Source: Euglena gracilis
Lineage: Eukaryota
Length of the DNA: 64,000 nt
Direction: 5' to 3'
Assembly (NCBI GenBank): GCA_039621445.1
Contig: CP154954.1
Coordinates: forward strand, 34,073,737 to 34,137,736
A program made the translations under genes and the position numbers. Under the pieces are notes generated by a model, which had not been told where the DNA came from, searched no databases, and saw only the letters and a list, made by a program, of their open reading frames with translations. Positions 1,106 through 35,598 of this stretch are shown here, piece after piece (the stretch's first letter is position 1; each line of letters opens with the position of its first letter).

Positions 1106-1141
1106 TTAGGTCACGATCCTACACATACAGCCCATACAGGA

Positions 1142-1393: not shown

Positions 1394-1406
1394 ATGCAAT
1401 CATCCC

Positions 1407-8347: not shown

Positions 8348-8350
8348 CTA
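8312..8350 (-). promoter_or_regulatory. gag UAG stop followed by stem-loop: putative stop-codon readthrough signal
   Basis: TAG GGG AGCCC GAGGTCCG AGGGCA CGGACCTC T GGGCT; pol continues in the same frame with no further stop. Confidence 0.65.
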
Positions 8351-11300: not shown

Positions 11301-12329
11301 AGACACAAATCCACCACTGCTGGATGTTGCAGACGAGGAATCTCGTGCATGCAACTGTTGTTGCAAATGCAACAACGCAGATGAACAGGACTCCATTTGT
11401 CCCGATAACTGCTGTAGTGAGCCATGCAAGTGCAGAAACTTGGAGTCATTCCGCGTTTCCGCTTCATGCATGCATTCACTAATTTGCCGGAAGTTTTGCG
11501 GGAGCTGTTGGCATATTCTGTCAAAGGTTTCCCGAAAGTTTGCAAGGTCAATACCCGCACTTTCGAAATTCCTCTGGCAATATCTGCCAACTTCCTGCAA
11601 GTAATTCCAGCAGTGTTCCAGCTTGGTGAAGACATGTTTCTGGTTGTCCTCGTCAAACTGAAGCACTTTGTTCAATGCGGTTGCACACTCTGCAACGCAT
11701 TGTTGCACATGGTTGAACTGCCTCACAAGGGGGTGATCCCCTGGAAGCCGAGCAACAATATCCTGCACATCCTCAGCAGTTGGGAGCTCACCAGTGCCCT
11801 TCCCATAGTCATCCATGGGTTGGGATGTACCGGAGAATTCCGGCACCACGAGGCGAGTCTCCGGTTGCCAAGGTAGTACGGGATAGCACCCGATATCGGG
11901 GGGTGGTGGCAAAGCTCTGTAAGGGCTTGCTGGTGGAAGAACGGGTGGTGGTTGAAAGAAACGCGGGGTTTCCAGTCCACCATCACCAGAGAAGCCCGGT
12001 GGCGGAATCACCACGGGTCTCTCCGGTGTGCGCAGCTGCACCATTGCCGCAAACAGATGCGAATACCCCCGTTGTGGCAAGGTGAGTGCGGAAGAGGCCG
12101 CATTAGCCTCTGAAGCCAATGAAGTGGAGGGCTCATCGCCGACCACTGTCAATGATGACAAGTGTTGCAATTGTGACAATTGAATCAATTGTGCCTCATC
12201 GGCGTGGGAGTGGGAACTGGAAGCACTTTCAGATAAAAGCTTCCAATCCCCATTTTCTTGGTCAATGTCTTGCAATGATGCCTGTAATAAGGCATAATTG
12301 AATTGATGGTTGGGGCCTGTGCTTTGCAT
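8348..12329 (-). pseudogene. gag: gag of element A (~1,330 codons; frameshifted near 9390)
   Basis: Long heptad-rich N-terminus; capsid-like WDGDPTTW...WEYYW region; two CCHC knuckles (CFLCNKLGHMSREC, CSLCGSSDHHPSKC); collinear with gag at 22471-25830. Confidence 0.88.
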
Positions 12330-12533
12330 CTTTCTGATGACAAAAACAGCAAAAACCCACAAAACTAAGCAGTTGTGCTGGCACCAGAGGGGCTGTGACG
12401 GGTAATACCGTACAGAGCCTTCCGGAGCCTGCTCGTCTGCTTAGACGTTGACTAGAAGCCGGGAGCTGACGCTGCGACCGTGTAATAACGGTGCAGGGGC
12501 TCTCTGCTGCCAGTCAGCGTAGGATCGAACCAA

Positions 12534-12543
12534 TCTGCTACCA
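12534..12543 (-). promoter_or_regulatory. Second PBS (tRNA-iMet type) at the end of the inverted segment
   Basis: Minus strand reads TACACT-TGGTAGCAGA-TTGGTTCGATCCTAC, i.e. LTR tip plus PBS upstream of gag. Confidence 0.85.
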
Positions 12544-12556
12544 AGTGTAATACGTG

Positions 12557-15028
12557 ATAGCGTTCCAAAAGCATGTGCTTTTTGTGAAGGGTTCCAAAAT
12601 GCACCTGTTTCGCAAAATTATTAAGTTTTGCGGACACATCCTGAGCAACGGGCAGCGTAAAGCCGCACCCAGTAAGATGGAGGCCATTAGGAAATGGACT
12701 CGTGAGGTCATTAATACCTTAACGCATTTAAAGGTATTTTTGGGATTAGCCCAGTACTACGCGATTTACATGAAAGATTTTGCAAAAATCGCGGTACCCC
12801 TAACCCGACAACTCAAAAATCGGACACCCGATAACGCAAAAGTCATTTGGGATGACCAAATGCGCGAGGCCTTGAATAAAATCAAGGACTTGCTCCTCAA
12901 GAACGTGGTTCTCGATATCGCGGATCCATACAAACCGTATGTCCTGGAAGTCGACAGCAGCGATTACGCTGTTGGCGGGGTTCTTAGCCAGCATAATGCG
13001 GCGAATGAACTCCGACCTGTGGCTTTCTTTAGCAGGAAGCTACAGGGTGACAACGGGAAAGGACAGGTTAAATGGAGCATTCGCGAAAAGGAGACATATG
13101 CCATTGTGCTGATTCTCCAGAAGTTTCGCAGCTGGATAGCCAGCAGCTTGGTCCAGATACTAGTGTTGACGGATCATGAGAGCCTTCAACACTGGTATAC
13201 CGAGGACCTGAACAAGGCCATGTCATCAGTTGGCAGAAGATCCCGATGGCATGAGTTCTTGAGCCAGTTTAACCTGGTGGTAGTTTATACCCCAGGTCAT
13301 ACACAAAAAGTTGCGGATCCTCTCAGCCGAGCCCCCTGGTATTATCCTGGGAACCCGGATGAGGGTGATGCGACTTTTCATGGCAGCCATGAGGCTGACC
13401 AGTTCGCACGTCGATCCGACGCTGCGGACAACATGCTCGATTCACTACCGGTTTCCCGGGAGTATCGCAGCATCGCCATTTCACCATTGCGTGGAAGGCG
13501 CCGGCGTGGACGCACTGCCGGACCCCGTCGCATTACGCGTACGCAAACTCCTACCCCCCTATTTTTCCGCGAATGAGATTATTCGCGTGACCCTGTATAT
13601 AGTACCATTGTGAATAGACTTCGTAATGGTGAATCCATAGAGAATTACTCTCTATCACCATTGCGGCTTATTTTCCGGAATGATTCTGGTTATAAATATT
13701 GTATACCCCAAGACCTGGTTGATGATGTGATTTTGAGCTATCACAACCATGGTCACCCTGGGGCCCCCAAACTTCTTTCACTAGTGGGTCGCAGATATTG
13801 CACAACCCTGAGTGAAAAAGATTTATATTCGCGCTGTTTGCGAATTTCGCAACGGTGCCAAATTTGTCAGGCTGTGAAACCGCGCAGAGGTACCCCCCCT
13901 GGTACGATGGACTTTTTCCCCGTACCACCTGACATTTTTACGTCCCTCTGCATTGATTTTCTCGAACTTGAACCTTGCAAAGGATCAGATGACAGAATTT
14001 AAGATTACGTTTTTGTTGTCGTCTGTCGGCTGAGTGGGTACATAGTAGCCATTCCATGCCGGAAAGCAGGGTTGACAGCGCAAATTTTGGCATCTATATT
14101 CCTGGAAAAATGCATCTGCTTAATGGGTTTACCGAACGAAATCGTGAGTGATCAAGATCACTTGATCTCTTCGCGGTTTTTCACCACTTTGTGCGGTTTA
14201 CTCGGCATTGAGCAGCATTTTTCCATTATATACCGCCCGAAAGGCAATGGTAGAGCCGAGGCAGCCGTGAAATCCGTTGTCAATATGCTTCGCCTTTCAC
14301 TGGCTGACTCGGGTAAGAATTGGTTATCCGTTCTTCATTGGTGTTTATTTTACATCAATACCTTGCCAGGGTTGGTATTACCACACTCACCGTACAAAAT
14401 CGTTTTCGGACGAGACCCTCCGGCCATAGGGGATATCCGCTCGGAGAGACCCGCCCGAAGTAGCGTCAGCTGTGGAACGTGGTTTGCAGAAGTGGAATCA
14501 CTCCGCTCTGCAGTCCAATCACGTATCACAGAAATTCATTCCAACAAACGGAAATCGTTTTTACAAAACTTCAACACACCTGTGTATAGTCCAGGTGACC
14601 GCGTGTGGGTACGGAATAACCGCACCCGCATGCAATCTTCCAAGCTAGATCCTCTTTGGCTCGGCCCATGCGAAATTTTGGAGAGGTTAGGTAGTAGCGG
14701 GCGATATAAAGTTGCCTTGCCCAACGGGATTGAGGACGTCCATATGGACGACTTCAAACCGTACCTAAGCCCCCTAGACGGAAAAGCTATCCCCTGCCTA
14801 TATTTCAAGCCCCGTTCCAGATTACCTGAAACGGACGACTTTGTGGTCGATAAGATAATAGACCACAAGGTCGACAGGGGTGTGCACTACTGGAAAGTTC
14901 GCTGGAAAGGGTATGGGCCAGAGGAGGACACTTGGGAGCCAGCATCCAGTTTTGTTGGATATATCCAGCAGGATTGGAAGCTGTGGAACAAGCGCAATAA
15001 CATAGACATAAACATAAACACTTTCTGA
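12557..15028 (+). pseudogene. pol: pol 3' part: RT C-terminus, RNase H, integrase, chromodomain (two in-frame stops)
   Basis: KFCGH, FLGLAQYY; RNase H DSSDYAVGGVL/EKE/TDHESL/ADPLSR; integrase H-H-CC and D,D,E (IDFLE, SDQD, GRAE); chromodomain [25 protein letters not shown]. Three ORFs lie in one frame, split by TGA 13574 and TAA 14000. Confidence 0.95.
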
Positions 15029-15224
15029 AACGATTTCGTTTTGGGAGAATGCGTGTGTTTTATGTGAATGTTTCGCGTTTATAACCCCCCGTGCACTTCA
15101 TTCTTTCTCTATCTTTCTCGCAGAGCCTTTGATTAAGATAGAAGTTTCCTTTTTCAGTGCCACAGCACTCAAAGCGACTAACAACAAGGTTACCCTTAGT
15201 TGTCGTCGTCGTTCGGGTAGCATC

Positions 15225-16690
15225 ATGCTGCCTGGGCGCGGACCTGGACCAGGTCCACCATGGCCGCAGCCTTCTGGCGCGCCACACCCCCAGTACCCTC
15301 AGTATGCTGAGGCCCCGATTCCGGGTGCCCCACATCCTGAGAGGGTTTCAGCCCCGGTATTCGCCGCGGCTACCAGCAGCCGGTCCGCATATGCGGTACC
15401 AGATCCATCTGCCGTCCAGCAGCCGGCACCTCAGCCACCAGCGCAGCGCAGATCGCGCTTGCCCCCGTATGCGGGAGAGATGATCTTCCGCACTACGGAG
15501 ACGTTGGAGCGGGCGATGCGTATGTGCGCGCACCCCCCAACGGAGCCCTTTATGCAAGCCCTTTGGGATGCATACTGTGCTCAGCTGTTGGTGGTAGCCA
15601 ACACCCCTGTGGCTCAGTGGTGTCCCTGTGGTCAGGCCCTGATGACAGGGAGACGGTATTTCTCGTCGGCATCGGATTCCGGATTTGAACCCGGCGAGAC
15701 CATGATGGACCTGGGCGTGTATGTGCCGCCCATGCTGCAAACGCAGACGCCGGTGGGATCCCACACCGTGCATATGCGTGAGCACACGCCCCCACCGGTA
15801 GGTGAGGCTGTGCATGTCCCACCTGGGATGACAAGAATTTTTGCTCGCCCGCCCTCGCCGCAGCGAATGCCGCCACGCGAGCCGCCAGCGGAGCAATTTG
15901 TCTCGCGGTACGCGACGCACGCGGATTACCCGCGCGGCGCACGCGTTCTCCCAGCCGGACAGTCGGACGTGCCCCCTGAGGCATACGTCCAACACATGTT
16001 CACGCACTGGATGCCACAAGCATCACCGGTCGCCCCTGTCCCTGGCGTTGAGCCACGGAGGCGGGAGGAGCCCATAGTGGTGGAGGATGAACCTCCCCAC
16101 CGTGAGGCAGCCCGACCGCCCAGTGCAGCCCCTGTCCAGACTGGGGATGTTCCCCGTCGGCAGGAGACTTCGTACTACCACATGGCACCTCCGGGAACCG
16201 AGCAGGATGAGCTTGCTCGGAATTTCCTGCAGGAGCCAGTATTCACGTCTGAAGAGCACCGGGCGAGGTATTACTCCTCGCTGGCCGCCCTTCAGGGCCG
16301 TGGATACACCCCGTACTATCCGTACCAACCGCAGCTGCGGGTGGTGACCCCGGTATTACCCGGTGAGCCCCCGGCCGGAGCGGCAGGATTACCTGCCACC
16401 CTGAAGCGCGATAGGGTTACGGAGAACCTTACCCCACAGCCCAGGCGACCCAGCCCACGGGACGCGGAAGGCGGTGCGGCAATGCAGGTGGAAGCCAGCC
16501 AGGATACCCCGGCTGGGCAACCACCGGCAGTGGCACAGGCAGCGATGAGCCGTCCTGTTGCCGCAATGCCACCACCGATCCCTCCGGTATGGAAGGAGCC
16601 GCGACCCCCTACGCCGAAACCAAGCCCACGCCAGGCTCCTAGCCAGCGCCCAGCCACGCCGTCACCGCGACGTGCAGCGGAACGGCAAGG
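15225..16690 (+). pseudogene. Accessory ORF3 of element A, segment 1 (Pro-rich)
   Basis: Open from ATG 15225; cut by mini-element at AAGG TSD; rejoins 18372 in frame (AERQG|PSPEMEW). Confidence 0.75.
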
Positions 16691-17289
16691 TGTGAGCGCG
16701 GGCCAGATTTGAGATTTATTTTTGTAAGAACTGCCAGCAGAAATTAGGCATTGCCTCACAGAGATTTTGGGGAATTACATTTTTCACAGGCAAGCTGGCA
16801 AACAGTGTACAAGTTTGCGTGGGACTCTGAACTGGATTCAAAGTATCAAGTCTTGTCTTCTGGGGTGCTGTGTGGGGAAGTTTGGGAAGAAGACCCCTGA
16901 AGGCTGAAAAGTTGGAATTGGCCAGAAGTCTGATGTGGTGAAATTATCTGGACACACTGGACCATCCCCCAACTTGCACAAACTTGTATGAGATTTGCAG
17001 TGCAGAAAAGCCCCGTACAAACGTACCTGTGGAGCCGGGGACACTCAGAAGTGAAAAGGCATGGAAGTGGCAGGCCAGCTCAGCAGCAGAAGGGGGACAA
17101 GGCAGAGGAAGGCATCAGTTGGCACACAGTGAGATGCTGTGTTGGGCCACCATGATCAACTCTCCAGATGAAGCTAGCAGCAGGTGATCCTGGAGTTGGT
17201 GCTGCTGTGGGTCTTGGTTTGAGCCTGGGCTGAAGGACAGACGGAAATGTCAATCACAGCCCGCCATCATCATCAATAATCTCAATCTC

Positions 17290-17550
17290 CAAAATGTGTG
17301 TCAAGATGTCATTTCAGGGTCAAGTTCAAGTCAAGATGTCAAGTTCAATTTCAAGATCCCAAGGAATCTGTGGTGGAAGAAAGTTGTCATGTCAAGATTT
17401 CAATTTCCCAAGGTCAATCTGTGAAGGAGTTCTGTCATCATTTCCAAGATTTCAAGTTCCCAAGGTCAATCCGTGGAGGAGCCAAGGTGTGATGTCCAAG
17501 ATTTCAGTTTCCAAGTTCAAGATGTCAAGTTTCAACGTCACTGGTCAAGT
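17290..17550 (+). repeat. Low-complexity TCAAG-rich repeat inside the mini-element
   Basis: tcaagatgtc, tcaagttc and ccaagatttc motifs recur about every 10-25 bp. Confidence 0.7.
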
Positions 17551-17971
17551 TCCCCCTGGAGATTTCGGCGCGAGGAGCCTGACCTCGTAAAAAACAGTGA
17601 TCAGGGTTGTGCAACAACCCTACAAATGCACATCTGGTGATCATCTTCAAGTTTGTCAACCTGTTGCTGCTGTGATGGCTGTGGTGTGTGCCGCCTCCCC
17701 GTTCGGTGCTGGGCCGCTTCAAGGGGGCTCTGCTCCGGTTTGGCTCGGCGGGGGTCGCCGAAGCCCCGGCTGGACCCCATGGGGGGTCATGTTGTACGGG
17801 GTAGGTCGTACGACATGGCTCTCTAAGGTGGAAAGGCTGGGGTGGAGGTAGACGGGCCCCACATGGTATTTATCTGTGGATTTGGACATGATTACGATTA
17901 TCTGTGGATGCGAAGATTTTACAATTTAAATGCGAGAACCGCCATTCGTCACTTTTCCATGTCGCTGCTGC

Positions 17972-17993
17972 GTGTGTGTGTGTGTGTGTGTGT
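17972..17993 (+). repeat. (GT)n microsatellite
   Basis: About 11 GT units. Confidence 0.9.
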
Positions 17994-18371
17994 TGAATTT
18001 TTATCTCCGGCCCGCTCATTTTTTACTTCCGTTTTGGACAATTGCCTGGCAATTGTTTTTGGGAAGGGGGGTGTGAGCGCGGGCCAGATTTGAGAATTAT
18101 TTTTGTAAGAACTGCCAGCAGAAATTAGGCATTGCCTCACAGAGATTTTGGGGAATTACATTTTTCACAGGCAAGCTGGCAAACAGTGTACAAGTTTGCG
18201 TGGGACTCTGAACTGGATTCAAAGTATCAAGTCTTGTCTTCTGGGGTGCTGTGTGGGGAAGTTTGGGAAGAAGACCCCTGAAGGCTGAAAAGTTGGAATT
18301 GGCCAGAAGTCTGATGTGGTGAAATTATCTGGACACACTGGACCATCCCCCAACTTGCAAACTTGCAAAGG

Positions 18372-21300
18372 TCCCTCCCCAGAGATGGAATGGGAAGGTA
18401 CCGAACCGACTCCTGCCGCACCGAGCGCCCGACCCTCTGGTATTCGCCAGACAGGGAAGGACAAAGGTAAGGCTGAGGGCAAAGGCAAGGGAGAAGGCAA
18501 AGGCGTGGCCGGCAAAGGTAAGGGTGAGGGCAAGGGTAAGGGTACAGCCCGTGAGGAGGAGGAAGAACCAGCAGAAGTCCTCTCGGACTTTGAGCAAATG
18601 CTCAGGTTCAAGGAGGAGCTGGAGGACGAAGGCTGGCGAATGCAGCATGATTACCATGTGGCAGGAAACCGCCCCGTCACCCCTCCGGAAGCAGTCATCG
18701 AGGTGGTATTACACCACACCGAAAACCGAGTCAGACAATTCCATTACGGAATTGACCTGTACGCCTTCGAAGGTGAAGGTGGCAGACCCTTGCTGGATAT
18801 CCAGCCGGGTTTCTGGGAACTCTGGTTTTGGCTGGGATACCCCTGCCAGAACTGGGGTCTCTTCAGCGACTCCACTGGCCGCAGTTACCTGCACCAGTTA
18901 GGATTTCGGGACCAGCATGTGTTGGCCCGAAGGCTGAATGCAATCTTCGACTGTATTCACACAGTCGGGCCCCTCGGTGTGCAGTGGAAATACTACCCGC
19001 TGAACCCCGACATCAAACGCCTGATCGAGGTGTTGTGGTGCAACAACCTCCACGTGTGGCTGGTGAGCCATTACGGCTCCACCTTCCGCGTTAGGCGTGT
19101 TTCCCTGGCTTACCCGCAGAGGTATGACCTCTGCTGTAAGTACTGCCGGCAGGAATTTCCTGTCGACTTCTGGGGATTCGGCGTGCGCGGAAGTCCTCCA
19201 CCGCCTCGGGATAACCCGGGCCTGGAGATGGGACGCCGCATGCTTATGCATGTGTGCCGCGACGCCCCGGATGTCCAGGGCAAAAGTCGCCGCGTCCACA
19301 AGCAGCGTATTTTTATGCTGCAGCAGTTCTGGTGGCGAGCCTGGACCACCTATGTCATGGAGGTGTATATACATCTCCGTGACCCCTAGGACGATAGGCC
19401 TGGTATGGACAGTTTGCCACCAGACTAAGGCGACCCCGTTGAAGGACCCCGTCGTCGTCGGGTTATCGCTGACCTGCGCCCCAACTGGCACCTGGCCGGG
19501 ATAGACCTGGAGGAACATTTGAGGCGACAGTTTGGCGGTACCCTCGACAGGGAGGTATTCCTCCAGCTGATGACTTACCCGAAGGCCATCCTCGACCTAG
19601 GTACGCCGATTCTGGCATGCGTGCAGGAGTTCGAGGAGGGCTTTTTCGAGGTCTGGGAGGACACGCGTTACCGCGGTTTCCTGGGCCCGAACAGGCCTGC
19701 AAACGCTTGGGTGCAGCCATCATGGCCGCCACCCTGGCCCAACAGCGCCAGTAGCAGTACGCTGGCCTTTTACAGGCTGGCGGATGCCCAGGGATGCCGA
19801 TGGCACCCCGACGATCCTCGTTCGCCCGAGGATCTGCGCGCCTTCATCGCCCCAGAGGATGAACCTCTGGCGCGAAGGAGACGGGAGGCGTCAGTCGCTT
19901 CCACCACCGCGATTCCACGGCAGGAGGAACGCGACCGCAGCCCCTCCGTCACCATTCTGGAGGCAGCGCCGCCGTCTCCGACAGGAACGGCTGTATCCTT
20001 CGTCTCTGCCCCGCGAGCGGCAGGGGAACGATCGGTTTCCCCGGCCCCCGCGACGGCTCTCGTCTGTCCACCGGTAGGTGGAGACCAGGAACTTCCTGAG
20101 GAGGAAGGTGAGAACGTGGAGGATATCCTCTACGCTGCTCTGCATGCTCCGGCACAGCCTCGGCCAGACGAAGCACCCGCAGGGGATATACCTGTGGCTG
20201 CTACGCCTGTCCCAACGGCTGAGCCTCCAGCCGAGATGACTGGTATGGTCGTCGAGGATATCCTCGAAGAACCTACCAGCCCCGCAGCACGCACCTCATT
20301 AGGAGGCCGTGTGCTCGGCGCCGTAGTCACCGGCATTACTGCCGTGGCTGCTGCACTCACGCCACGAGGTGGAGGCGTAGCGTCAAGCTCCGCCGCTGAG
20401 GTCGTGGAGACACCAGATGTCGGTGTCCCCACACCCCCATCTCCGGCAGCAGTGCAACCACCATCAGGGGATGAACCCCGACCGACAGAGCCATCTGTCG
20501 CACCGGCTACACCGGAGGATCAACCTCCTGTAGCACCTGCGCCAGCGGTTGTGGAGGATCAACCTCCTAGACCGGATGTCGAAATGGAAGTGGAGGAGAT
20601 ACCTCCACGACCACCGACACCGCGCAGGGTCCCTGCCGTCCCGAGGACAATGGCAGAGTTTCTGGGAGCGCCAGCGCCTGTGGAAGCACCGATTCCGGTG
20701 ACGACCACAGTGCCACGCCTCGTCGGACAGGACGAACCTGCTCGGCGACGGCCGGCTGAACAACCCCAGGAACGAGTGCCGACCCCTCGGAGCGTCATGC
20801 GCGACCCAGCGGTCAGTATGCCCGCTTCGCCCAGACGGCAAACGTCTACTCCGGCACCATCGGCTCCTGATACCAGGAGTAAGCCGCAGGCGTCACCTCC
20901 TGATTCCGGGAGTGCGAAGCCGAAAGGAGGCAAACCGGGTGCTGCACCCTGTAAGCCCCCTTCCAAAGGCGGTGATGGGAAACCACCACCGAAAGGTGGC
21001 GCTGGAGGTCAGACTGGCAGACAGCCGAAAGGCCCTACGACAATGCACGACTATTCGGCCATTGCATCGTCCGGGTACGGCCAGAGCAAACCGAAAGGTA
21101 AGGCTCGTGGTCGACAGGCCCAATCTTCCGCCGGATCGACGGATGAGGAGCAGGATGAACCTGTTTCACCTCCTGTGCCTGCGGATGCCCAGCTCTGGAC
21201 CCAGGATATCCTGACCAGACTAGGCACCGTGGAAGAGAGGACGAGGAAACTGGCTGCTATTAGGCACCAGACAGGGTCACTGAATCGATGGATTCAGCCC

Positions 21301-21820
21301 CTCTTCGTCCGCGGAGAACCTTTCCACTATGTCCCGGAACATACCTGGACATTCTGGAACTGGCGCTCACCCAGAGTACTGGCACAGTACTTTGGCGAGG
21401 ACTGCGTGTTGGACTTCCAGCACGGCACGTCCTTTGCCTGGACGTGCACCGTGTGCCACCATGTGCGGCACAACCAACCGCTTGTGCATGTGTGCAAGCG
21501 GCAGGTGCAATCCTCGTGGTTCCATCACAGGGCATATGTACCGAACTGTGTGGCGCTCGTATGTGGCGAGTGCCTGAATGCCTGGAAGCACAGCTTGAAC
21601 TACTCCTACAGTGAGAATGCTCACGACAGGGATATCCCTGCCTTGTGCATCAACTGTATAGGAGGCAAGTTCGTGCAGACTGCTGATGGAGCAGTCACCA
21701 CCATTGTCCCCCAGCACTGGGAGACACTGGAGAAGTGGAAGAAGGAGTACAAGCAGGTGGAAGGCCGCCTGAAGCACTCCGAGTTCAAAAAGGTAGAAAG
21801 CTACCGCCACACGGGAATGG
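18372..21820 (+). pseudogene. Accessory ORF3, segment 2 (GK repeats, Cys/His clusters, Pro/Ala-rich linker)
   Basis: ORFs 18316 and 19519 share a frame, separated only by TAG 19387 and TAA 19426; cut by element B at the AATGG TSD. Confidence 0.75.
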
Positions 21821-22230
21821 TGTGTACCAGGCAGCATGAACATGGCACTGTGCATAGCAGCAGACTGCGAAATGTACAATGTCATGCCAGATAGTACTAT
21901 TCCATGTTCTGCAATACAAATTGCAGAATTAGGAATAGCCTATCCTATCTCGGATCTGCCTTCCCTTTCACAGGTGGTATTATTTTATTCTTCTCATCAA
22001 AAGCCTGATCAAAGGCAATTTCAATTCCAACACTCCGATTGGAGAACACTTGTGGAACTAGTTTCCAAAGAAACCCTCTGGTTTGCCTTGTGCTCTGCAT
22101 AAGCCCAAAGGCAATAAAAACTAATAGTTAAGTGAAAGACTTTCTTTTTTGTTACTCTCCTGGTTCTGTTCCCACGGGAGGGTGTAAGTAGGCCGACAGG
22201 CAGTGGGAATAGAGTCAGGGGACGTACACT
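21821..22230 (+). repeat. 5' LTR of element B
   Basis: TGTGTACC...GTACACT followed by TGGTAGCAGA. Confidence 0.93.
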
Positions 22231-22240
22231 TGGTAGCAGA
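22231..22240 (+). promoter_or_regulatory. PBS (tRNA-iMet type) of element B
   Basis: TGGTAGCAGA abutting the LTR. Confidence 0.85.
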
Positions 22241-22470
22241 TTAGGTTTCTTTCCTACGCCCCTTCTCCCCCCCATCTTAACAGGTGACTTCAAACAGTGA
22301 GTGGTGCGCAGCCTATAGGCTACAAAGCATCCACGAGTTGTTTGGAGCCAACTTATAAGCACAGGTACGAGCTTCAGGAGGCTCTGGGCAGTATACACTG
22401 CCACATCCTTCTAAGTTTGTTCCTTTGCTTACTTTTTGGGGTTTCTTGTGTTTTTTCTGCAAATAAAAAT

Positions 22471-25400
22471 ATGCAGAGCTCAAGCACCAACACACTCATT
22501 GATTACCAAGAATTGATTGGTTCTTTGAGAAGCACTTCACATGAATTGTCACAAGAGGAGTATACGCTCCAGTCCAGGTATACCCCAAGCTCTATAGAGC
22601 ATCCCCACGACAAAATTTCCAGCTCTATTGAGCATCTCCCCACCCCAATGGTTTCCAGCTCTATTGAGCACCCCCCCACCCCAGTTTTCAGCTCTATTGA
22701 GCATCCCCTTACCGTAATTTTCAGCTCTACCGAGCATTCCCCCACCCCGCTTTCCAGCTCTATCGAGCATTCCCCCCACAGCTCTATCGAGCAAGCCCCC
22801 ACCCAATGGGTGCCACACCTAACGGTGTCCAGCTCTATCGAGCATCCCCCCACAGTGGCCAGCTCTATCGAGCAATTACCTCCAACCCCCAGCTCTATAG
22901 AGCATTCCCCCACCGTTCTCAGCTCTATCGAGCATTCCAACACCCAAAGGGTGCAATACCTAACGGTGTCAAGCTCCATCGAGCATTTCCCCACCCATGA
23001 GTTTCCACACCTAACGGTGTTTGATTTAGGCGATAACCCCTCTGCGCAATGGGTGCAACGCCTATCGGCGTGTGGCTCTATCGAGCAACCCAGCGCCCAG
23101 TTTGATTGTCAATTTTTGCTGCAAAGTCACGCACCTTGTGGTAACTCTCTGCATGAGGATGTCGCAACGGTGCCTACAGGCACAATTCGCAAACAAACCA
23201 CTGATGTGGTTTATCGCATGTTGCCAAAGGAGGCATTTTTGCACATGCAACATAGTTTGCAAAGGTTGATTACAAAATTGGAGCCAATAACGGCACTTTT
23301 TGAGCACAAAAATCCTGATATGGGAGCTTTTGTTACGTTGGAGCAGTTCACTGCATTCCAGGAAGCGCAACAGCGCATTATGCAACTGAGCCGTGAATCA
23401 GCAAATTTTCACCATACGCACACCCAACGTGGTGAAGGTTTCGCTTCCAGCACTTATGTGCAGCAATTGGAGGAAAGACTTTCCCGGTTGGAGCGAAACT
23501 CATGCAGGTGTGGTGAAAATTCTGCTGAAATAACAAGTTTTTACACCCATATCGCGAATATCGCAAGCAGGCAGGATGCGTTCCACCAACGGTGGCAGAA
23601 TAATATTGTTGACATCCAAACCGCAATTGCGGAGTTGCAGAACCGCAATGTGGTACCATGTTCGCATAATTTAGAATTTCAGCGATTTTCTGCAGATATG
23701 CGTGATGAAAATCACCAAGTCAAGAAGAATTTTTGTGACGGTCCGATACGGACTGAGGAAACAGTGAATCAGCAAGTCAAAAAGTTGCAGAAAGATTTCG
23801 CAGCGCTATCCGCGCAAGTTTCGGTGTTTTTGGAACAGCCAATGGCTGAAAACGTGCGGAATCCGCAAAATACCCCTCCTTCCAAACCACCTCCACAACT
23901 GGAGCCTATTTCCGAAGCGGTGCACACTCTAGCTGTGCGACTACGGGAATTGGAAAGTGGTTTTGGAAAAATTTCGCAAGATTTCCGGTCTTTTTCTGAC
24001 AAAATCCCTCTTCTGGACGATATGTCCAAACACCGCAGGCGTATTAAGCGTTTGCAGGAAGATATTGGTGCAATCACCGATCATCTGAAAATTCTCGATG
24101 GTTTGGAGAAAAATTTTGGTGACTTCACAGAAAATTTGGATCAAGTACACGCACAATTGCGTTTATTACCACAAAAACCCGATACGGGTGTTGTAGGCAC
24201 ACTTGCCGCAGATTCCAGCTCCAAAAGCGCCAATAGCGCACCTGTGGCGGAGCCTATTGGCACATTGCCACAAAATTACGATTCTGCTCATGCAGTGGTC
24301 CCTCCCCCAGCGGTACCAGTCCCAATGGACCATTTTTTGGATGATGGGGTTGGTTTTCAAGAGAAAGCCAAGCGAAACCCTCAAAGAAATCGAAAAATTT
24401 GGGAATATGAACTTTGTCGCGGTATGAGCCGCACTCCCGCACATGGAATTGATCCTGAGATGCATCAGCATCACCATTCGCGCATTCGCGATTCACCAAG
24501 TTTGCAAGGTACCTATGGTACACCAAGTGGAATATTGAATGCGCATTCGCAAAATACACCCAAAAGTACACTTGGTGCAACCACCGAGGTACCCGCGCAT
24601 GGTGCGGTTTTGCGCCCAGGCCCATCCTCCTTGAATACCACCGAAGGGCCATGGGAGTCTCAGAAAGATATCAAAGGAATCATCGCTATCGCGAAAAAGG
24701 TAAAGCCCCAATGGGACGGTGACCCAACAACATGGAAACAGTTTTTCCGTGATTGGGAATATTATTGGGATCTGAAAGGATCAACCCACAACGTAAACCC
24801 AGAGGTAATCAAAATGGAATTCGTAGATTGTCTACCAAAAGATGAAAAGGAACGCGCCAGACAATTGGTCATTCGCGGGCGCATTTCTTTTCAGGATTTG
24901 GTTGAGCAATATGCTTCATCATGTTCCAGTTTGGTTTCCAGAATCACTCTGGAGAAAAAATGGCGGCAATATGCCCCCCATGACCGAAAATGGAGGTCGA
25001 TAGACCTATGGTACTCAAAATGGCTCGCATTGGCAGCCGAAGTAGACGAGTTAGGCGAAACCCAAATGAAAGAGCAATTTGACGCAGTATTGCTGCACTT
25101 TATACCCAAACTCATCAAAGATATTCACCGCGAGGAACTCGCAGGACATATTTTGACGCTCGATGAGCGATGGAACTATGTTTCCAAACAGTTGAAGCTA
25201 TCACAGCTTTTAGGACAAATCCAGTCGGCTTATACGAGCCACCCCACAGCAGAAATACCCGCTATACAAGTCAATTATGTGAAAAAAGTGTCACGCTTAT
25301 CACATACCGCTATAGCGGAATCCAAATTGCGCAATTCGCGCTCTTCAGAAGAATTTTCGGACAAATTGTGCTTTTTGTGTAACAAAAAGGGTCATATATC

Positions 25401-25830
25401 TTGCCATTGTCCAAATCCCGCAGCGCGAAAGCGTAACCCAAGCCCAAGAGGATCACCCTCATCAGGCAGTTCTCGTTTTTCACAAAATGCGCATTCGCAA
25501 AATTCAAAATATCGATCAAGATCCACATGTTCACTGTGCGGATCCACCAACCACCCCTCACCCAAATGTCGCTATGCGACTCCTCCCCACCCAAGCCAGA
25601 GTCATCGCGATATGAGTCGCAGTTCAAAAGATCATACTTCAGCCAAAAGGCACAAGGTAGGTCAAACAACAACCTCTATCGAGGATTATCACCCGGCTTC
25701 GGGCAGGGAGGGGGATGATACCCCACGTAACCAAAGGGATCATCCCCGCTGTAGCGCTCATTTAGTCAGAGACGTATATGCGTCAAGAAAGTCAACGGCT
25801 GATATGGCCATTGGTTCGGATTTTGAGTGA
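22471..25830 (+). CDS. gag: Intact gag of element B (~1,119 aa)
   Basis: Uninterrupted ORF; strong similarity to A gag (KVKPQWDGDPTTW..FFRDWEYYW, KQLKLSQLLGQIQSAY); two CCHC knuckles. Confidence 0.88.
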   Translation: MQSSSTNTLIDYQELIGSLRSTSHELSQEEYTLQSRYTPSSIEHPHDKISSSIEHLPTPMVSSSIEHPPTPVFSSIEHPLTVIFSSTEHSPTPLSSSIEHSPHSSIEQAPTQWVPHLTVSSSIEHPPTVASSIEQLPPTPSSIEHSPTVLSSIEHSNTQRVQYLTVSSSIEHFPTHEFPHLTVFDLGDNPSAQWVQRLSACGSIEQPSAQFDCQFLLQSHAPCGNSLHEDVATVPTGTIRKQTTDVVYRMLPKEAFLHMQHSLQRLITKLEPITALFEHKNPDMGAFVTLEQFTAFQEAQQRIMQLSRESANFHHTHTQRGEGFASSTYVQQLEERLSRLERNSCRCGENSAEITSFYTHIANIASRQDAFHQRWQNNIVDIQTAIAELQNRNVVPCSHNLEFQRFSADMRDENHQVKKNFCDGPIRTEETVNQQVKKLQKDFAALSAQVSVFLEQPMAENVRNPQNTPPSKPPPQLEPISEAVHTLAVRLRELESGFGKISQDFRSFSDKIPLLDDMSKHRRRIKRLQEDIGAITDHLKILDGLEKNFGDFTENLDQVHAQLRLLPQKPDTGVVGTLAADSSSKSANSAPVAEPIGTLPQNYDSAHAVVPPPAVPVPMDHFLDDGVGFQEKAKRNPQRNRKIWEYELCRGMSRTPAHGIDPEMHQHHHSRIRDSPSLQGTYGTPSGILNAHSQNTPKSTLGATTEVPAHGAVLRPGPSSLNTTEGPWESQKDIKGIIAIAKKVKPQWDGDPTTWKQFFRDWEYYWDLKGSTHNVNPEVIKMEFVDCLPKDEKERARQLVIRGRISFQDLVEQYASSCSSLVSRITLEKKWRQYAPHDRKWRSIDLWYSKWLALAAEVDELGETQMKEQFDAVLLHFIPKLIKDIHREELAGHILTLDERWNYVSKQLKLSQLLGQIQSAYTSHPTAEIPAIQVNYVKKVSRLSHTAIAESKLRNSRSSEEFSDKLCFLCNKKGHISCHCPNPAARKRNPSPRGSPSSGSSRFSQNAHSQNSKYRSRSTCSLCGSTNHPSPKCRYATPPHPSQSHRDMSRSSKDHTSAKRHKVGQTTTSIEDYHPASGREGDDTPRNQRDHPRCSAHLVRDVYASRKSTADMAIGSDFE
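22587..23095 (+). repeat. In-frame minisatellite encoding SSIEH-P repeats in gag B
   Basis: About 12 copies of agctctat(c/t/a)gagca with frame-preserving spacers. Confidence 0.88.
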
Positions 25831-26520
25831 AGGAACCAAAAATCCAAGGATGCGGACTACAGAGGCTACTAGAAAGGAGGTGACAGGAGTCGCGACCCTA
25901 GTCATCCCCTGCCCAGTATCCTTTCTGGTCAGTGTGCAAGGATTTTCTGGTGTCCCCGCTCAAAATTTACATGAACCTTTGACATATACACACTTTTGTG
26001 TTTCCAGTTGTGGTGCATCGTGGGATACCCCATGTATGGCCATGTGGTTGAGTGGATTCCCCCTCCAAAAATGCACACAACACCGCAAAATTCTTCCCCC
26101 CCTCAAACTTCCACTAATCATCACTTTTACATACCGTTTTCGATGACAGCAACACCGTTTTCAACAACACCAACACCGTTTTCAACCCGGGGTAAAGAGA
26201 AAGTGCCCCCCCTACCCACCGCATATCCACAAACGTTCCACATGCGGTAGGGGTAACAAGTAGCTCAACCCGGATCGTTTCACTGGGTTCCAAGACGAAA
26301 GCCCAAAGGCCTGAAATTCGAATGGTGTCGAGTAGTCGCCCAGCTGCTTTCATTTTTCGTTATCCACCAGGTTTGTCGATTGCAGACAATCCTGTACACC
26401 CCCCGCAGCTCAAATTCGCATACAATTTTTCTTACACACTCCCCCCCCAGACCAACATGCGCGACAAGGACAACTACTCAGCACCCCCCCCCAAAGCGTA
26501 CACTCTGGGAAAAATATCAA
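25831..26520 (+). pseudogene. Degenerate pol remnant (spacer region only) of element B
   Basis: gtttcactgggttccaagacgaaagcccaaaggcctgaa and cagaccaacatgcgcgac match the reverse complement of A 7300-7520; no PR, RT or IN motifs remain. Confidence 0.7.
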
Positions 26521-26579
26521 CACAACCAACAACCAAACACCAAAGGAAATAACTGACACCAAACTAATCACCACCCCCG

Positions 26580-26960
26580 CGCCTATGGCGCCCCGCCACT
26601 CAAGCGCCAATGGCACCCACCACCCCCCGCGCCTTTGGCGCCTCCCTGCGCATATTGCGCAAAGTGCGTACAGCACAGACGCTGCGCCTATGGCGCCACC
26701 CACCCTCGCGCATAGCGCAAATCTTGCGCATAATGCCCCCCCCCCCCCCTGCGCTTATGGCGCCCCCAACCACCGCGCCTATGGCGCTCACACCCCCGCG
26801 CATATTGCGCTCCCCACGCGCATGGCGCTCATAATTGTTTTGCACACCGCGCATAGCGCACCTCCCCACCGCGCATGGTGCGCAGCCCGCAAACAGCCCC
26901 CCCCCCACAAGATGCGCCGCCCCCCCCACCCCCCACCCGTGCATAGCACAAATCTCGCAT
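26580..26960. repeat. GCGC-palindrome / C-run array (copy in B)
   Basis: Same pattern as 80-460. Confidence 0.75.
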
Positions 26961-29900
26961 AATTGCGTATATCTTACAAATGGGTATCTGCCCAACCCAA
27001 CCATATTCTTTTGGGAATAGGTCCCAAAGATGTTTGTGTACATATTTCATGATGGCATTTTGTTGTTGATATGTAAACCACATGCTCAAAATGCAGATTT
27101 GGTTTACTTCAGCAACAAAAGTAGCCGCCCCCCCCCCCTCTTTGACCACGAACTTGTTGGTCAAATTGGCAAACACCAAAGGTGTTTTGATCGTTCAAGC
27201 GCACAATTGTGCTCACTTCAAAGTTATTTGCAAAAACACAAGGTGTGTGATAAGTTTTTTGGGATACATTGCAAATACTGCATTTTTTCCCATGAACTTG
27301 CACAGCATTGTGAAGAACAGCTATTTTGTGAACAAAATGGCCTTTTTCTTATTGCAGAAGTGAATCCCGATAGGGAAATAAGTTGAATTCCTCGAGAAAA
27401 TCTGCCAACTAGTTGGCCCCCGCCCCCGCCCCGCCCCCCCGCCCCCCCCCCCCCCCCCCCCCCCAAATGAATAAATTCATTCAAACATGCATTTTTTGTG
27501 GACTTGACCACTTAGCCTTAGGTCTATGTGACCAATACACCCTATGATGTGCAAGGCCTATGGGCCGTTACCCATGTGGTCCATGGGTCCATAGGACCAA
27601 TTTGCACAAAATGCAAGGACCAAAAGGACCAAAGGCCCACAATTCCATATTATAAAGTGAAAAGTCCATAGGACCTCAAAAAATGGCACAAAAAGCCATA
27701 TCACATGGCTGAAAGTGGCTGAATTGGCCAAAACAAGCCAAATAGGCTAGTTTTATGCAGATTTGCATAAGTGTCACTTTGGCATAGCCTCAAAACCACC
27801 ACAAAAGCTTCAAAATTTCTGGCACCTCGTGCCATGAGGTTTTGACTGTATGTAGTAGTGCCTATGAGATAGAAACCAAAAGTTGTCTTTGTAGAATAAA
27901 TTATGGACGCTCATAGCAAAAGCTCACTCACACAGTCAAAAGATCAAAGACGTATCTCAGCGTCCGTAGCTGGCCGATAGGCCATGTTACCCCTCATTCG
28001 AAAGCTCGTTGGACGAGCCGTCCAGCGATGCTATCAGATCGCTGTAACTCTGCACGGTACTCTTATTTGAAGAGATCGTGAAATTTTGAATTAGGCCCAG
28101 CCAATTTGGCCAAACCCAACTTTTTTCAGCCAGATGTTGTACGATCGTGTACCACACTGGCAAATCAGCCTGAAAGGCTTCTATACTGTTCCCTACATCG
28201 TTTCTGATGGCTAATTACCATTGGTTACCAGTTTGGCTAATGGCCATTTTTTAGTACCTTTGGCAGCATTCTGCCCATTGCCCCCTCTGTATGGCCTATT
28301 AGGCCTGGTACAGTTCAGAGGGCTATAGCCCACAATTTGGAGTCATTTCGACTCACTAGAATCATTTTTAGGAGCACTTATGTGCAAATTTTCATTTAAA
28401 TCATTGATTTTCTGCAATTTTTGGTGATTTTTCCCTATTCTGGCACTCATATCCCTAATGGGAGTGACCATGAGGCACTATGCCAGAGTGGAATGCAAAG
28501 GGATATGCTGATAATGGCAATTTTTCCTTTGCTCAAGATGTCATAGACATGTTTTACTTGTATTTTCAAGCGTATTTTTGCTTTTTTTTGCGATATTCTG
28601 CACAATTTCACAGCTTTTGGGGTGATGTGGTGTTATTAGACACCCAAAACCCAAAATCTTTACAACAACAAACATGCAGTGTTATTGGACACTCTCAACA
28701 AGCACTATGTGCACTTGGCAAATTTGCAGTCTTAAATGACTCAAAATGCAACAAAGTTGCACTTTTGGCAACAAAAATGCAACTTTAGACGCAGAATCTG
28801 CATTTCTGCCCTAAATCCTGATAGGGATTTCCACAAAAATCTGACAAAAGTCAGTATTTCTCAGTGGCATAGTCACTAATGATGAGATTTTGTCATGTTT
28901 GCAGTATTTTTTTCTGCTTACCACACTAACGGCATTCTTGCCCCCCCCCCCCACTTTATTCAGTGGGACCCCCTTACCGATATAATTCGGACCCCCCCCC
29001 ACTTTATTTAGTGGGACCCCCTTACCGATATAATTCGGAGGACCCAATGGTCATCATGTGCAACACCAATGGTGTCATTCTGCAAGGTTTATAAGAACCA
29101 TAGCTCAAAAATGGTGAAATCCAGCTTTTTTTGATGAATTTCACCGCAGTGGAACAATGTTCCATCCTTTTATGTGCATTCACAGTTCATTTGCGGTTTT
29201 TCAAAGTGGTATAAGCCACACCAACCACAGTTGTTCTGTGATTTGGCAGCAGCCTGCCACAATTCCGCATTTTTTCTGCGGTTGTACACATCAGTATGAT
29301 CTTTTTGGCAATCTGCCGAAATTTTTGATTCGGGTATACACCCATTAGTATTTTTGTGCCATGCATATTCCGCAAGGCAATGTTTCTGGGCGATAAAGCC
29401 TACCCCCCCCATTATTTTTGGCTAATGCCAACCCTTCAGCCTACAGGCTGCACACCCATGGCACAAATGCCAAATCTACAGTTTTTAGGGCTACTGCCCG
29501 CTATTATGAGGTATACGCCTCTGGGGATACCCCATCGACAACATCGTGCTCGCGCTGCACTGTGAAGACTTCATAGCGGTATATGCCGCAGTAAGAAGAC
29601 GCACAGCGTACAGCGCGCACACCGTAATAATAGGGCCAACTTGTTACTTTTCGGCCTTAAGGCCCCCATAAGACTGCCAGACAGCAAAAATGCTTTGTAA
29701 GGTCTTTAGACCAGCCCCCCACCCCTCTCTCCTTTCCCCCCCGGGCAAAACCGCTGTCGCCGGCAGTTGGTTTTGTAAATAGGCTTTCTTCCCTGGTCAG
29801 GTATGACTGGCCAGGTGCCCCTCCTTCCACACCCTACCTCTACAATCTTTTCCGATCATGGAATGAGACCACCACAAGTGCCATAGGCACACCCCAAACC

Positions 29901-30199
29901 GGGCGGATGGGACTCTCTGGAATGGAAACCTTCCAGCCCAATTTTCCAATGGGCTCTTCCACTTCCACCCCTTTACCGCAATAAGTAGGTAGCCGCATAA
30001 GCGGGTAACCTCTTTTGCGCGTTTTGGGTTTTTGGGTTCCCCTCCCTTTCTTCCTTCCCTTTCTGGTTTTTTTACCTTGTGATGGAGAAGCAGACCCAAG
30101 ATATGCTTTCCTGGTGTACATTCCCCAGTCTTAGAGCTACGCTTGAATCCTTGCTGGCCTGGTCCAGTAAGGAAATCGGGCAAAGCCCTGGGAGGGGGA

Positions 30200-30609
30200 T
30201 GTGTACCAGGCAGCATGAACATGGCACTGTGCATAGCAGCAGACTGCGAAATGTACAATGTCATGCCAGATAGTACTATTCCATGTTCTGCAATACAAAT
30301 TGCAGAATTAGGAATAGCCTATCCTATCTCGGATCTGCCTTCCCTTTCACAGGTGGTATTATTTTATTCTTCTCATCAAAAGCCTGATCAAAGGCAATTT
30401 CAATTCCAACACTCCGATTGGAGAACACTTGTGGAACTAGTTTCCAAAGAAACCCTCTGGTTTGCCTTGTGCTCTGCATAAGCCCAAAGGCAATAAAAAC
30501 TAATAGTTAAGTGAAAGACTTTCTTTTTTGTTACTCTCCTGGTTCTGTTCCCACGGGAGGGTGTAAGTAGGCCGACAGGCAGTGGGAATAGAGTCAGGGG
30601 ACGTACACT
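30200..30609 (+). repeat. 3' LTR of element B
   Basis: Preceded by PPT; followed by TSD AATGG. Confidence 0.93.
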
Positions 30610-30614
30610 AATGG

Positions 30615-31219
30615 CCCGTGAGTTCCAGATCGACGCTGGGGCAATGCGCCTCGCCGTCGAGGAACACGCCAAGGTAAGAATGCCTTACCTCTGGACTGAT
30701 GGCGAGTGGGAGACACAGGTTTACCCCCTGTTCTCCAAGCGTCAGCATGGCGGATACGCCTTGCCACTGTGGCCTCCTGAAGAACACGATTTGGTGGACT
30801 TCAGAGGTTGGTTGGCGGCTGTATTACGGCCCCATACCGCAAGAGCTCGGACAGCGAGGTGGATGTATGACATCAACTTCAAGCAGACCCCGGGGATGCC
30901 CCCGAACGTGCCTGCGAATCACCCCCGGATGAATTACATCATCTGGCCGGTGATGCTGCCCAGAATTTTCTGGGAGCAACTCCAACGGTATCTTCAGCAT
31001 CATGCTGAACGTACCAGGGAGAAGCTGCCGGATAATTGGATCAAGGACTGGGAGACCCCTTCCTTTGATGTCAACGATCCGGAGCTCAACACCATTCGGA
31101 GTGAATCAGCTCCGCCGCGTTCCCCACGCCAACTGGAGTTGGTTGAGGACCCATTAGGGGACCCCCAATACGACTACTGGCGTGAGGTGCGCGAACGTCT
31201 AGCCGATAAAGGCAGGTGA
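30615..31219 (+). pseudogene. Accessory ORF3, segment 3 (C-terminal Trp-rich part)
   Basis: In-frame continuation after removing B (ESYRHTGM|AREFQIDAG); ends at TGA 31217-31219. Confidence 0.78.
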
Positions 31220-32032
31220 GGTGTCTGTCAGCACCAATGCGGCGTCTTTCAGAACCCTCGTCAGCTATTCGCCTGACACCCTGTTTGGGTATTCGCCCGA
31301 ACAGCCCCTTCGAAGACCCGTTGCGGTATTCGCCGCTAGTAAGTTCCCACCGGGATGCTGCCATGTGCAGGATTCCGTGCGCATGCATGCACACCCCTCT
31401 CCCCTCTCCCCTCTCGCGGGCGTGCGACACGCAGCGCACAGGGCCGACGGCCTCTTTTCCTTTCCCTTTCTTTTCTTTTCGGCCGTTTGAGGCCTTAAGG
31501 CTGCCAGACAGCACCATTTTTCTGGCCTAAGCCAACCCCCCACTCCTCTCTACTTTCCCCCCGGGGCAAATGCTGTCGCCGGCAGTTGGTTTTGTAGAGT
31601 AGGATTTCCTTTTGCGTGGTCAGGTTTGACTGGCCATGCGCCCTGCCCAGGTTTGACTGGTCAGAGGCCCCCTCCTTCCACACCCTCCCCATGGGTTTTC
31701 CTGGAATGCCCATGGACCCAACCCCAAGTGCCTTGGGCACACCCAAACTGGGTGGATGGGTTTGCTTGGCAAGGAAACCTGCCAGCCCCATTTTCCCCAA
31801 TGGGCTATAATATACTATATACCCATAAGCCACCGCAGAATAGGTGAAACCATTTTGCGCGTTTTGGGCTTTTTGGGTCCCCTCCTTTCCGCCCCCCCCC
31901 TTTGAGTGGACCCCTGTGCGACGGAAAGGGCCCCTGTGGATGCGCCAGGGTGCACCTCCCACAGACCAGGTCTGTGTCCGAAATCCCTGTGGCCAGAATG
32001 CCTGGTCCAAAGGGGAAATCGGGCATAGCCCT

Positions 32033-32042
32033 GGGAGGGGGA
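32033..32042 (+). promoter_or_regulatory. Polypurine tract of element A
   Basis: GGGAGGGGGA immediately before the 3' LTR; same tract precedes the B and C 3' LTRs. Confidence 0.88.
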
Positions 32043-32356
32043 TGTGTACCAGGCGTATGCTTCTGTCCCCTTCCGTTGAGGAAGTTAGGATGGAAGCAGA
32101 TCCTATTAGGATCTCCTAATGGGTGCCCCTTCTCTCTCCACAGGTGGTATTCTTATTCTGTTTGTCTTTCCTTTTCTCCGGACCGGACTTGGTTATCCAG
32201 TCCGTCCTCCCTGCATTGCTCTGTGCTTTGCTTCTTGGGAAGTGGGAAAAGGGTTTTTACTGTTACTCTGATTTTCAGTTCCCAAGTAGGTGCGCCAAGG
32301 CGAAAGCGAAGGCTTTTGGGAATTGGGAAAGGGGAATTGGGAATCAGACGTACACT
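32043..32356 (+). repeat. 3' LTR of element A
   Basis: Direct repeat of 782-1095, followed by TSD ATTTT and resumption of element C sequence. Confidence 0.93.
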
Positions 32357-35185: not shown

Positions 35186-35598
35186 TGTGTACCAGGCAGC
35201 ATGAACATGGCACTGTGCATAGCAGCAGACTGCAGAATGTACAATGTTATGCCAGATAGTACTGTTCCAAGTTCTGCAATACATGTTGCAGAATTAGGAA
35301 TAGCCTATCCTATCTCGGATCTGCCTTCTCTTTTCACAGGTGGTATTGTTATTCTGTTTCACATTTCATTAGCCCAAAAGGGCAAACCAAGATTTCAAGT
35401 TCAACACTCCGATAGGAGGACATTGGAGGAACGAGTTTCCAAACAAATCCCTCTCTTTGCCTTGTGCTCTGCCCAAAGGCAATAAAAACTAATAGTTAAG
35501 TGAAAGATTTTCTTTTTTGTTACTCTCCTGGTTCTGTTCCCACGGGAGGGTGTAAGTAGGCCGACAGGCAGTGGGAATAGAGTCAGTGGACGTACACT
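35186..35598 (+). repeat. 3' LTR of element C (diverged B-type LTR)
   Basis: PPT + TGTGTACCAGGCAGC...GACGTACACT, then satellite (ggcgtccgttac). Confidence 0.9.

Follow-up and report, generated by a model that had tools for sequence, protein, structure and literature searches.

Sense-strand additional open reading frames (aORFs) between pol and the 3′ long terminal repeat (LTR) are well known in plant LTR retrotransposons, as parts of Vicient and Casacuberta (2020; PMC7264820) describe. In the LTR elements of bdelloid rotifers, the third open reading frames (ORF3s) are recognisable enzymes, such as a GDSL esterase and a DEDDy exonuclease, or env-like genes, according to sections of Rodriguez et al. 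(2017; PMC5408684). LTR elements of Euglena that contain Dam, DNMT and chromodomains have been presented as DAM-LTR and EpiLTR in portions of a recent preprint (bioRxiv 10.64898/2026.05.21.726589). Here, we analyse a third open reading frame of ~1,840 codons, hereafter ORF3, carried by an LTR retrotransposon that we call element A, in a 64,000-nt stretch of Euglena gracilis DNA (assembly GCA_039621445.1, contig CP154954.1, positions 34,073,737 to 34,137,736; the window). All coordinates below are those of the window.

Compared with the plant aORFs, as far as those parts of the source go, ORF3 has the same sense orientation and the same place between pol and the 3′ LTR, is present in many copies and has no described function; in contrast, its host is a euglenid, its length is ~1,840 codons, env-like features are missing and no similarity to named families is seen. 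Element A shares with the rotifer elements, in the sections cited, a retrovirus-like organisation with an acquired non-envelope third ORF, but in the Euglena ORF3, which is several times larger, no enzyme domain can be recognised. With DAM-LTR and EpiLTR, as portrayed in the cited portions of the preprint, element A has in common the host, a Ty3-like organisation, a chromodomain and, upstream of the reverse transcriptase (RT), a Dam-like stretch; however, its Dam match falls below the Pfam cut-off (18.6 vs 28.1 bits), and DNMT, which defines EpiLTR, was not found in the 10 proteins scanned with Pfam or in the ORF3 relatives. The terms 'additional ORF', 'third ORF' and 'zinc' are absent from the available text of that preprint, whose supplementary architecture figures may show the region. 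Literature searches returned no description of ORF3, which is not proof of absence.

A reading frame split by two nested insertions

The preliminary description of the window had proposed that ORF3 is fragmented by two insertions, a mini element and a larger element B, and that excision of each with one copy of its target duplication (AAGG and AATGG, respectively) joins 15225–16690, 18372–21820 and 30615–31219 in one frame of 5,520 nt. Both manual and scripted arithmetic reproduced the reconstruction (1466+3449+605 = 5520 nt), with the codons GG/T and G/CC split at the two joints. Reading the junctions directly, copies of AAGG at 16687–16690 and 18368–18371 border the mini element (16691–18367), which starts with TG and ends with CA, and copies of AATGG at 21816–21820 and 30610–30614 border element B (21821–30609). 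The mini element (1,677 bp) and element B (8,789 bp) were each removed together with one duplication copy. The region is organised as follows:

15026–15028, plus strand: stop codon of pol, TGA
15029–15224, plus strand: pol–ORF3 spacer, 196 nt at a GC of 0.43, whose pyrimidine tracts run into an AG near 15123 and 15157
15225, plus strand: first ATG of the ORF3 frame, where GC rises to 0.66
15225–16690, plus strand: ORF3 part 1, starting with the ATG, 488 codons and 2 nt, Pro-rich for the most part and including one small block that contains Cys (WCPCG)
16691–18367, plus strand: nested mini LTR element, 298-bp terminal direct repeats 99% identical by self-BLAST, followed by the second AAGG at 18368–18371
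18372–21820, plus strand: ORF3 part 2, with a Gly-Lys (GK) repeat, module D1, a Pro/Ala/Glu linker and module D2
21821–30609, plus strand: nested element B, gag-only, 410-bp LTRs 100% identical by self-BLAST, followed by the second AATGG at 30610–30614
30615–31219, plus strand: ORF3 part 3, C-terminal module D3, ending with the stop TGA at 31217–31219
31220–32356, plus strand: 3′ untranslated region, polypurine tract (PPT) GGGAGGGGGA at 32033–32042 and 3′ LTR at 32043–32356

ORF3 thus occupies the env position that had been assigned to it, within the LTR pair and ahead of the PPT: the last base of pol is 15028, the PPT begins at 32033 and the 3′ LTR at 32043, and the end of ORF3 at 31219 lies 813 nt upstream of the PPT.

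The claimed frame has no stop in the 488 codons of the first block (5–14 in the other five frames), 2 stops in the 1,149 codons of the second (14–38 in the others) and, in the 201 codons of the third, the terminal TGA (4–11 stops in the others). Altogether, ORF3 contains 2 internal stops per 1,837 codons and its product would have ~1,839 residues. The longest open run of the second block is 797 codons, while 500 shuffles gave 160 on average and 383 at most. Both internal stops, TAG at 19387–19389 and TAA at 19426–19428, lie in this second block and are the only ones, as had been stated. The accompanying claim that each is one C>T change away from Gln was not confirmed, since relatives have L or W at the first position and S at the second. 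Three relatives, P0006, P0013 and P0019, read through both positions. The divergence between the two LTRs of element A (4 of 314 bases) predicts ~1.3 stops since integration, or 2.6 if all of the divergence fell on one copy. The 2 stops and 0 frameshifts observed are in line with this expectation and with an ORF3 that was intact at integration, its frame being open when the window copy inserted.

Copies of the family that lack the insertions were sought among contigs of four public sequencing runs (one DNA, two guessed to be RNA with differently labelled organisms, and one recorded as a metatranscriptome), aligned to 12500–32400 (19.9 kb). Both empty sites were bridged exactly by contigs of all four runs:

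Joint of 16686–16688 to 18368–18370, skipping 1,681 nt: empty mini-element site, in 20 contigs of run X1 (7+10+3), 1 of X15, 2 of X16 and 1 of X17
Joint of 21815 to 30610, skipping 8,794 nt: empty element-B site, seen in 9 X1 contigs and in one contig from each of X15, X16 and X17

The skipped lengths are those predicted for each element plus one target duplication; therefore, the uninterrupted ORF3 copies that the preliminary description had named as a check exist, and they are present in 4 of the 4 runs. The 20 and 9 distinct X1 contigs over the empty sites, together with those of X15, X16 and X17, place ORF3 in many copies rather than in one or few, and 82,007 X1 contigs matched the 19.9-kb stretch at 90–100% likeness, so the family consists of many variants. 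Contig depth cannot rank pol against ORF3. The element-B junction (query residue 287, with X at the split codon) is also spanned by single BLASTP alignments of two distant environmental relatives:

P0010: query residues 91–344, 26% identity, E 2.5e-26
P0015: query residues 192–439, 28% identity, E 1.1e-28

As a separate observation, one X1 contig joins 15083 to 31557 and omits the whole of ORF3. Its shorter side comprises only 30 letters and the intervening sequence is not known; thus, it was too weak to be taken as an ORF3-less derivative.

Modules and relatives of the ORF3 product

The ORF3 product contains three conserved modules, D1, D2 and D3, with long Pro/Ala-rich linkers between them:

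~18451–18543, plus strand: GK repeat with an acidic run next to it, both kept in P0004 and P0014
~18634–19812, plus strand: module D1, ~390 aa, rich in Trp and aromatic residues, containing the stops TAG 19387 and TAA 19426
Between D1 and D2: Pro/Ala/Glu-rich linker, ~430 aa, with one conserved hydrophobic segment at 20299–20358
~21169–21820, plus strand: module D2, ~215 aa, with CTVCH-x11-HVC-x19-C-x4-CxxC-x29-CxNC
ORF3 part 3: module D3, 200 aa, with the motif PGMPxxVPxNHPxMNYxIWPV

The motifs listed in the preliminary description (WCPCG; CCKYC..HVC; CTVCHH..HVCKR..NC..VCGEC..CINC; and the GK tract) were all recovered in the translations. The conserved blocks of D1 are FWxxxFxxGY, YPQxY and CxxC-x6-DFWGF-x(20-33)-HxC. 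No relatedness between D1 and D2 was detectable with hhalign (probability 0.1), and no internal duplication was seen.

A HMMER search of 1.84 billion representatives identified 18 proteins at E<=1e-3, matching in the same frame with E values down to 6e-155, and of 5.8e-12 at 28% identity. The best match, P0002, is an E. gracilis transcript product (EukProt) 97% identical over 230 aa in D2, and a second E. gracilis transcript product, P0012, is 46% identical; P0005 and P0011 are likewise transcript products of this species. These matches point to E. gracilis, or a very close relative of it, as the most likely host. Fragments at 46–97% identity span the GK tract, D1, the linker and D2. The distant relatives come from environmental contigs, with P0013 and P0019 matching D1 at 28–31% identity and P0010, P0015 and P0016 matching D2–D3 (26–28% for P0010 and P0015; 26–31% over all of these relatives), and the order of the modules is the same across the protein relatives (28–97% identity). 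ORF3, open at the integration of the window copy, has distant in-frame homologues. Of the 25 cells that P0010, P0015 and P0016 contribute to the ten Cys/His ligand columns of D2, 23 retain the ligand, against a background identity of ~26%; likewise, P0013, P0019 and P0009 retain the CxxC...HxC motif of D1. A word-indexed search with profile A1 matched only P0010, P0016 and P0020; word-indexed searching for the D2 region among proteins of 438–1395 aa gave no relatives, and scans of metagenome, viral and prokaryote genome contigs gave no DNA loci for the relatives. P0005 and P0011 are histidine-kinase/receiver-like products that have 56–67 residues of the ORF3 linker at one end (82–90% identity) and probably represent transcript chimeras that include a piece of the element.

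With respect to known families, Pfam returned 0 families at E<=0.01 for four pieces of ORF3. At E<=5, its matches to 15 relatives were scattered, confined to single members (E>=0.054) and without consistency. Profile searches of the PDB gave no relative (best E values of 1 and 0.16), and PHROGs and NCBIfam gave only matches at E>=0.03. Hence the Cys/His blocks, for which PHD-, RING- or ADD-like folds had been considered, have no significant profile or fold match. The leads below threshold were to RING families (Atlas 0.78–0.82) and to zinc ribbons (Atlas 0.89–0.90; a PHROG primase, E 0.073; Lar, E 0.037). The paired CxxC/HxC/CxxC clusters conserved in the relatives are a likeness to RING and zinc-ribbon proteins, albeit a weak one, as no family reaches significance. 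A zinc ribbon is defined by two knuckles of the CxxC type, carried on beta-hairpins, and by a match to a family profile; D1 combines the conserved CxxC...HxC with strands modelled at pLDDT 70–84, its profile matches all being below threshold. In the RING cross-brace, eight ligands are arranged with 2–3 residues between ligands 4 and 5. We rejected D2 as a canonical RING, given that 24 residues separate these ligands (CTVC-x11-HVC-x24-CGEC-x29-CINC) and that no Pfam RING was matched even at E<=5. Nevertheless, since the Cys/His columns are conserved, the clusters of D1 and D2 probably bind zinc.

The preliminary description had seen neither an obvious signal peptide nor an obvious transmembrane anchor, in agreement with our hydropathy scan. 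The N-terminus (MLPGRGPGPGPPWPQ) has no hydrophobic stretch of the signal-peptide kind. The best 19-residue value, 1.6, belongs to a marginal segment in the mid-protein linker, and part 3 reaches at most 0.42, which provides no candidate for a C-terminal anchor. No Pfam family of fusion glycoproteins or env proteins was matched. Judged by these features, the ORF3 product is unlikely to be an envelope protein. The overall interpretation offered earlier, a large accessory protein that might be a zinc-finger chromatin or anti-silencing factor, stands in its first part, ORF3 being an uncharacterised large accessory ORF that is neither a known env nor a one-off capture. The second part is conjectural; for the zinc finger there are sub-threshold leads, and the ligand spacing departs from that of a RING.

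Expression, possible role and competing explanations

We regard it as very likely that ORF3 is a real element-encoded gene. The best explanation of the data, which we consider probable, is that it is a genuine third gene of element A, for which we propose expression from its own ATG and a zinc-binding, nuclear role. Translation would start at the ATG at 15225 of a subgenomic message, which could be produced by splicing or by spliced-leader trans-splicing at the pyrimidine-AG sites of the AT-richer spacer. The CxxC/HxC/CxxC clusters would bind zinc and touch a nucleic-acid or chromatin partner, while the long disordered linkers would act as spacers and the Gly-Lys tract as a basic tether. The protein would serve the element in the nucleus, in the handling of ribonucleoprotein or pre-integration complexes, in targeting or in escape from silencing, and not in cell-to-cell transfer. 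A nuclear nucleic-acid or chromatin role for the zinc modules, beside the chromodomain and the Dam-like stretch, is our best single guess, and a tentative one. Bolder still, and rather doubtful, is the idea that ORF3 represents a new class of retrotransposon nuclear factor, in which a multi-zinc-module scaffold would act on the heavily methylated genome of Euglena together with the chromodomain and the Dam-like domain and would be expressed from a trans-spliced subgenomic message, as a protist counterpart of the retroviral accessory genes by a route undescribed for LTR elements.

Several observations weigh against this explanation. Many of the diverged relatives match only 37–136 residues, as decaying copies would, and P0003 lacks several of the Cys ligands, as expected of a decaying copy. 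No homologue of ORF3 part 1 (488 aa) was found in one search, among shorter proteins. The AlphaFold2 models, built from 7 rows each, were poor for both P0010 (pLDDT 37.8) and P0013 (pLDDT 51.6, pTM 0.53), and of the 76 matches at E<=10 that Foldseek found in the PDB for the P0013 model, 0 had E<=0.001; therefore, the zinc-finger assignment rests on the Cys/His patterns and the sub-threshold leads. Concerning expression, none of the joints listed is a spliced or trans-spliced one at the spacer, one long RNA-library contig (X17 record 23) is colinear from the integrase into ORF3, and ORF3 is seen as transcript products, a transcript not being equal to a protein. Finally, a 1-nt deletion at 15043 relative to the window, found in a single contig each of X15, X16 and X17 and in 31 X1 contigs (among the differences listed, 40 of 1,192), would put ORF3 in the pol frame.

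This deletion is central to the main rival, in which ORF3 is a C-terminal extension of Pol, reached by read-through of the TGA at 15026 or continuous with pol in master copies. Given that the ORF3 frame of the window is open from 15018, that TGA would be the only stop between pol and ORF3 in copies with the deletion. On the other hand, the deletion is absent from the window copy and from most X1 contigs at 15043, the spacer has further indels among copies, at 15126, and looks non-coding, with a GC of 0.43 vs 0.66 in ORF3 and no homologue, and the conserved part begins with the ATG; hence, we consider a Pol extension unlikely. ORF3 could also be a passenger, a host coding sequence transduced once and of no use to the element. 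Its third-position GC (0.61–0.67, vs 0.53–0.56 in gag and pol) hints at a separate origin, and the linker piece is shared with the histidine-kinase-like transcripts P0005 and P0011. However, these chimeras share the linker only, as expected from element fragments within genes, the copy number of the element is not one or few, and a useless 5.5-kb load would soon be lost, whereas the ORF3 frame was still open at integration and the D2–D3 order and the Cys/His ligands persist at 26–28% identity in environmental relatives. A passenger origin therefore seems improbable to us.

An ORF3 product of the envelope or membrane type, comparable to those of errantiviruses or of the Athila/Tat lineages in plants, would agree with the env position and sense orientation of ORF3 and with the hydrophobic segment RVLGAVVTGITAVAAAL (hydropathy 1.6), which is conserved in P0007. 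This segment is nevertheless marginal and Ala/Gly/Thr-rich, and it sits mid-protein in a disordered linker, with none near the C-terminus; moreover, the N-terminus (MLPGRGPGPGPP) is not a signal peptide, no Pfam env or fusion family matches and the Cys clusters are of the zinc type (CxxC/HxC), all of which makes this alternative very improbable. The absence of any gene, with the long frame being a chance product of GC-rich repeat DNA, has in its favour a GC of 0.54–0.59 and the low complexity of the Pro/Ala-rich tracts, yet the 797 open codons are set against the shuffle maximum of 383 and the homologues lie in the same frame down to 28% identity, so that chance is an extremely remote explanation. 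We therefore retain a third gene with its own ATG as the preferred explanation.

Element A, its surroundings and the Euglena repeats

The remaining features of element A are as follows:

782–1095, plus strand: 5′ LTR, 314 bp, 98.7% identical to 32043–32356 (4 differences)
1096, directly after the 5′ LTR: primer-binding site, TGGTAGCAGATT
Both ends of the element: 5-bp target duplication, ATTTT
1139–12559, minus strand: inverted 5′ half of the element, from Pfam and translations, with the leader, gag (12440–9393), a CCHC knuckle (9388–8351), the protease (DTG), a weak Dam-like stretch and the N-terminal and YIDD parts of RT
12551–15028, plus strand: 3′ half of pol, with the RT C-terminus and RNase H (12551–13576) and the integrase core, SH3 and chromodomain (14003–15028)

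In the 3′ half of pol, Pfam identified RT_RNaseH_2 (2.6e-25), Chromo (1.8e-10), SH3_Tf2-1 (3e-07) and rve (1.7e-06). The order RT, RNase H and integrase between LTRs, with a chromodomain at the integrase C-terminus, is that of chromovirus-like Ty3/gypsy elements, and on this domain order element A is classed as a ~16.5-kb Ty3/gypsy-type element with a chromodomain. Its 5′ half, from the leader to the YIDD part of RT, is inverted with respect to its LTRs and the remainder of pol. The canonical order is seen in a contig of run X16, whose letters before 12560 are the exact reverse complement of 1139–1168. The inversion of 1139–12559 is either real or an assembly error.

The Dam-like stretch lies between the protease and RT at ~6620–6865 on the minus strand (residues 495–576 of P0025), with a Pfam Dam E value of 0.0015. 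The catalytic motif of Dam-type methyltransferases is of the DPPY type, and the translation has WMHPPP in its place, so that we may be dealing with a divergent or inactive domain. An array of a 216-bp satellite, ~4.5 kb long (~1400–5944), interrupts the coding sequence of RT precisely between ...FDLEDGFHQ and LHLHPDSQPYTAF, without any loss of RT sequence. The same satellite, 93–94% alike, builds an array of >28 kb outside the elements (35599–64000). One frame of the 216-bp monomer (72 codons) is stop-free, which gives ORFs of up to 1,073 codons (38560–41781) in the array.

The mini element has no long ORF and is TRIM-like, and it is covered by X1 contigs; therefore, it belongs to a separate repeat family. 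Element B lacks pol, and its sole coding capacity is a gag-like frame of 1,180 codons in which two CCHC knuckles and an SSIEH-type repeat occur. Its identical LTRs indicate a very recent insertion. Element B is a non-autonomous relative, and its LTR ends and 3′ region resemble those of element A. Element A itself is inserted, with its ATTTT duplication, into an older B-like element at 1–781 and 32357–35598, whose 3′ LTR (35186–35598) adjoins the satellite, so that there are three nesting levels altogether. A tblastn search with ORF3 detected no second copy or relic of it in the window, element B included.

Extra ORFs in LTR elements are in themselves unsurprising. From its sequence and relatives, ORF3 is to be seen as a family-wide, non-envelope aORF that encodes a new protein family, of unusual size and in a lineage without a described aORF. 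The genome of E. gracilis, as given in parts of PMC11252322, comprises 2.37 Gb, of which LTR elements make up 21.8% (Table 4) to 32.8% (text) and unclassified repeats a further third. With a conserved 5.5-kb gene, whose product matches no described fold, in a multi-copy family, a large part of the 'unknown' repeat sequence of Euglena may be coding, and nested insertions, as at this locus, conceal such genes from ORF-based annotation pipelines. D1, D2 and D3 would provide three new protein modules for studies of structure and function, and ORF3 would serve as a test case for the expression of extra genes by retroelements in a trans-splicing host. Euglenid elements thus appear to carry more than gag, pol and methyltransferases.

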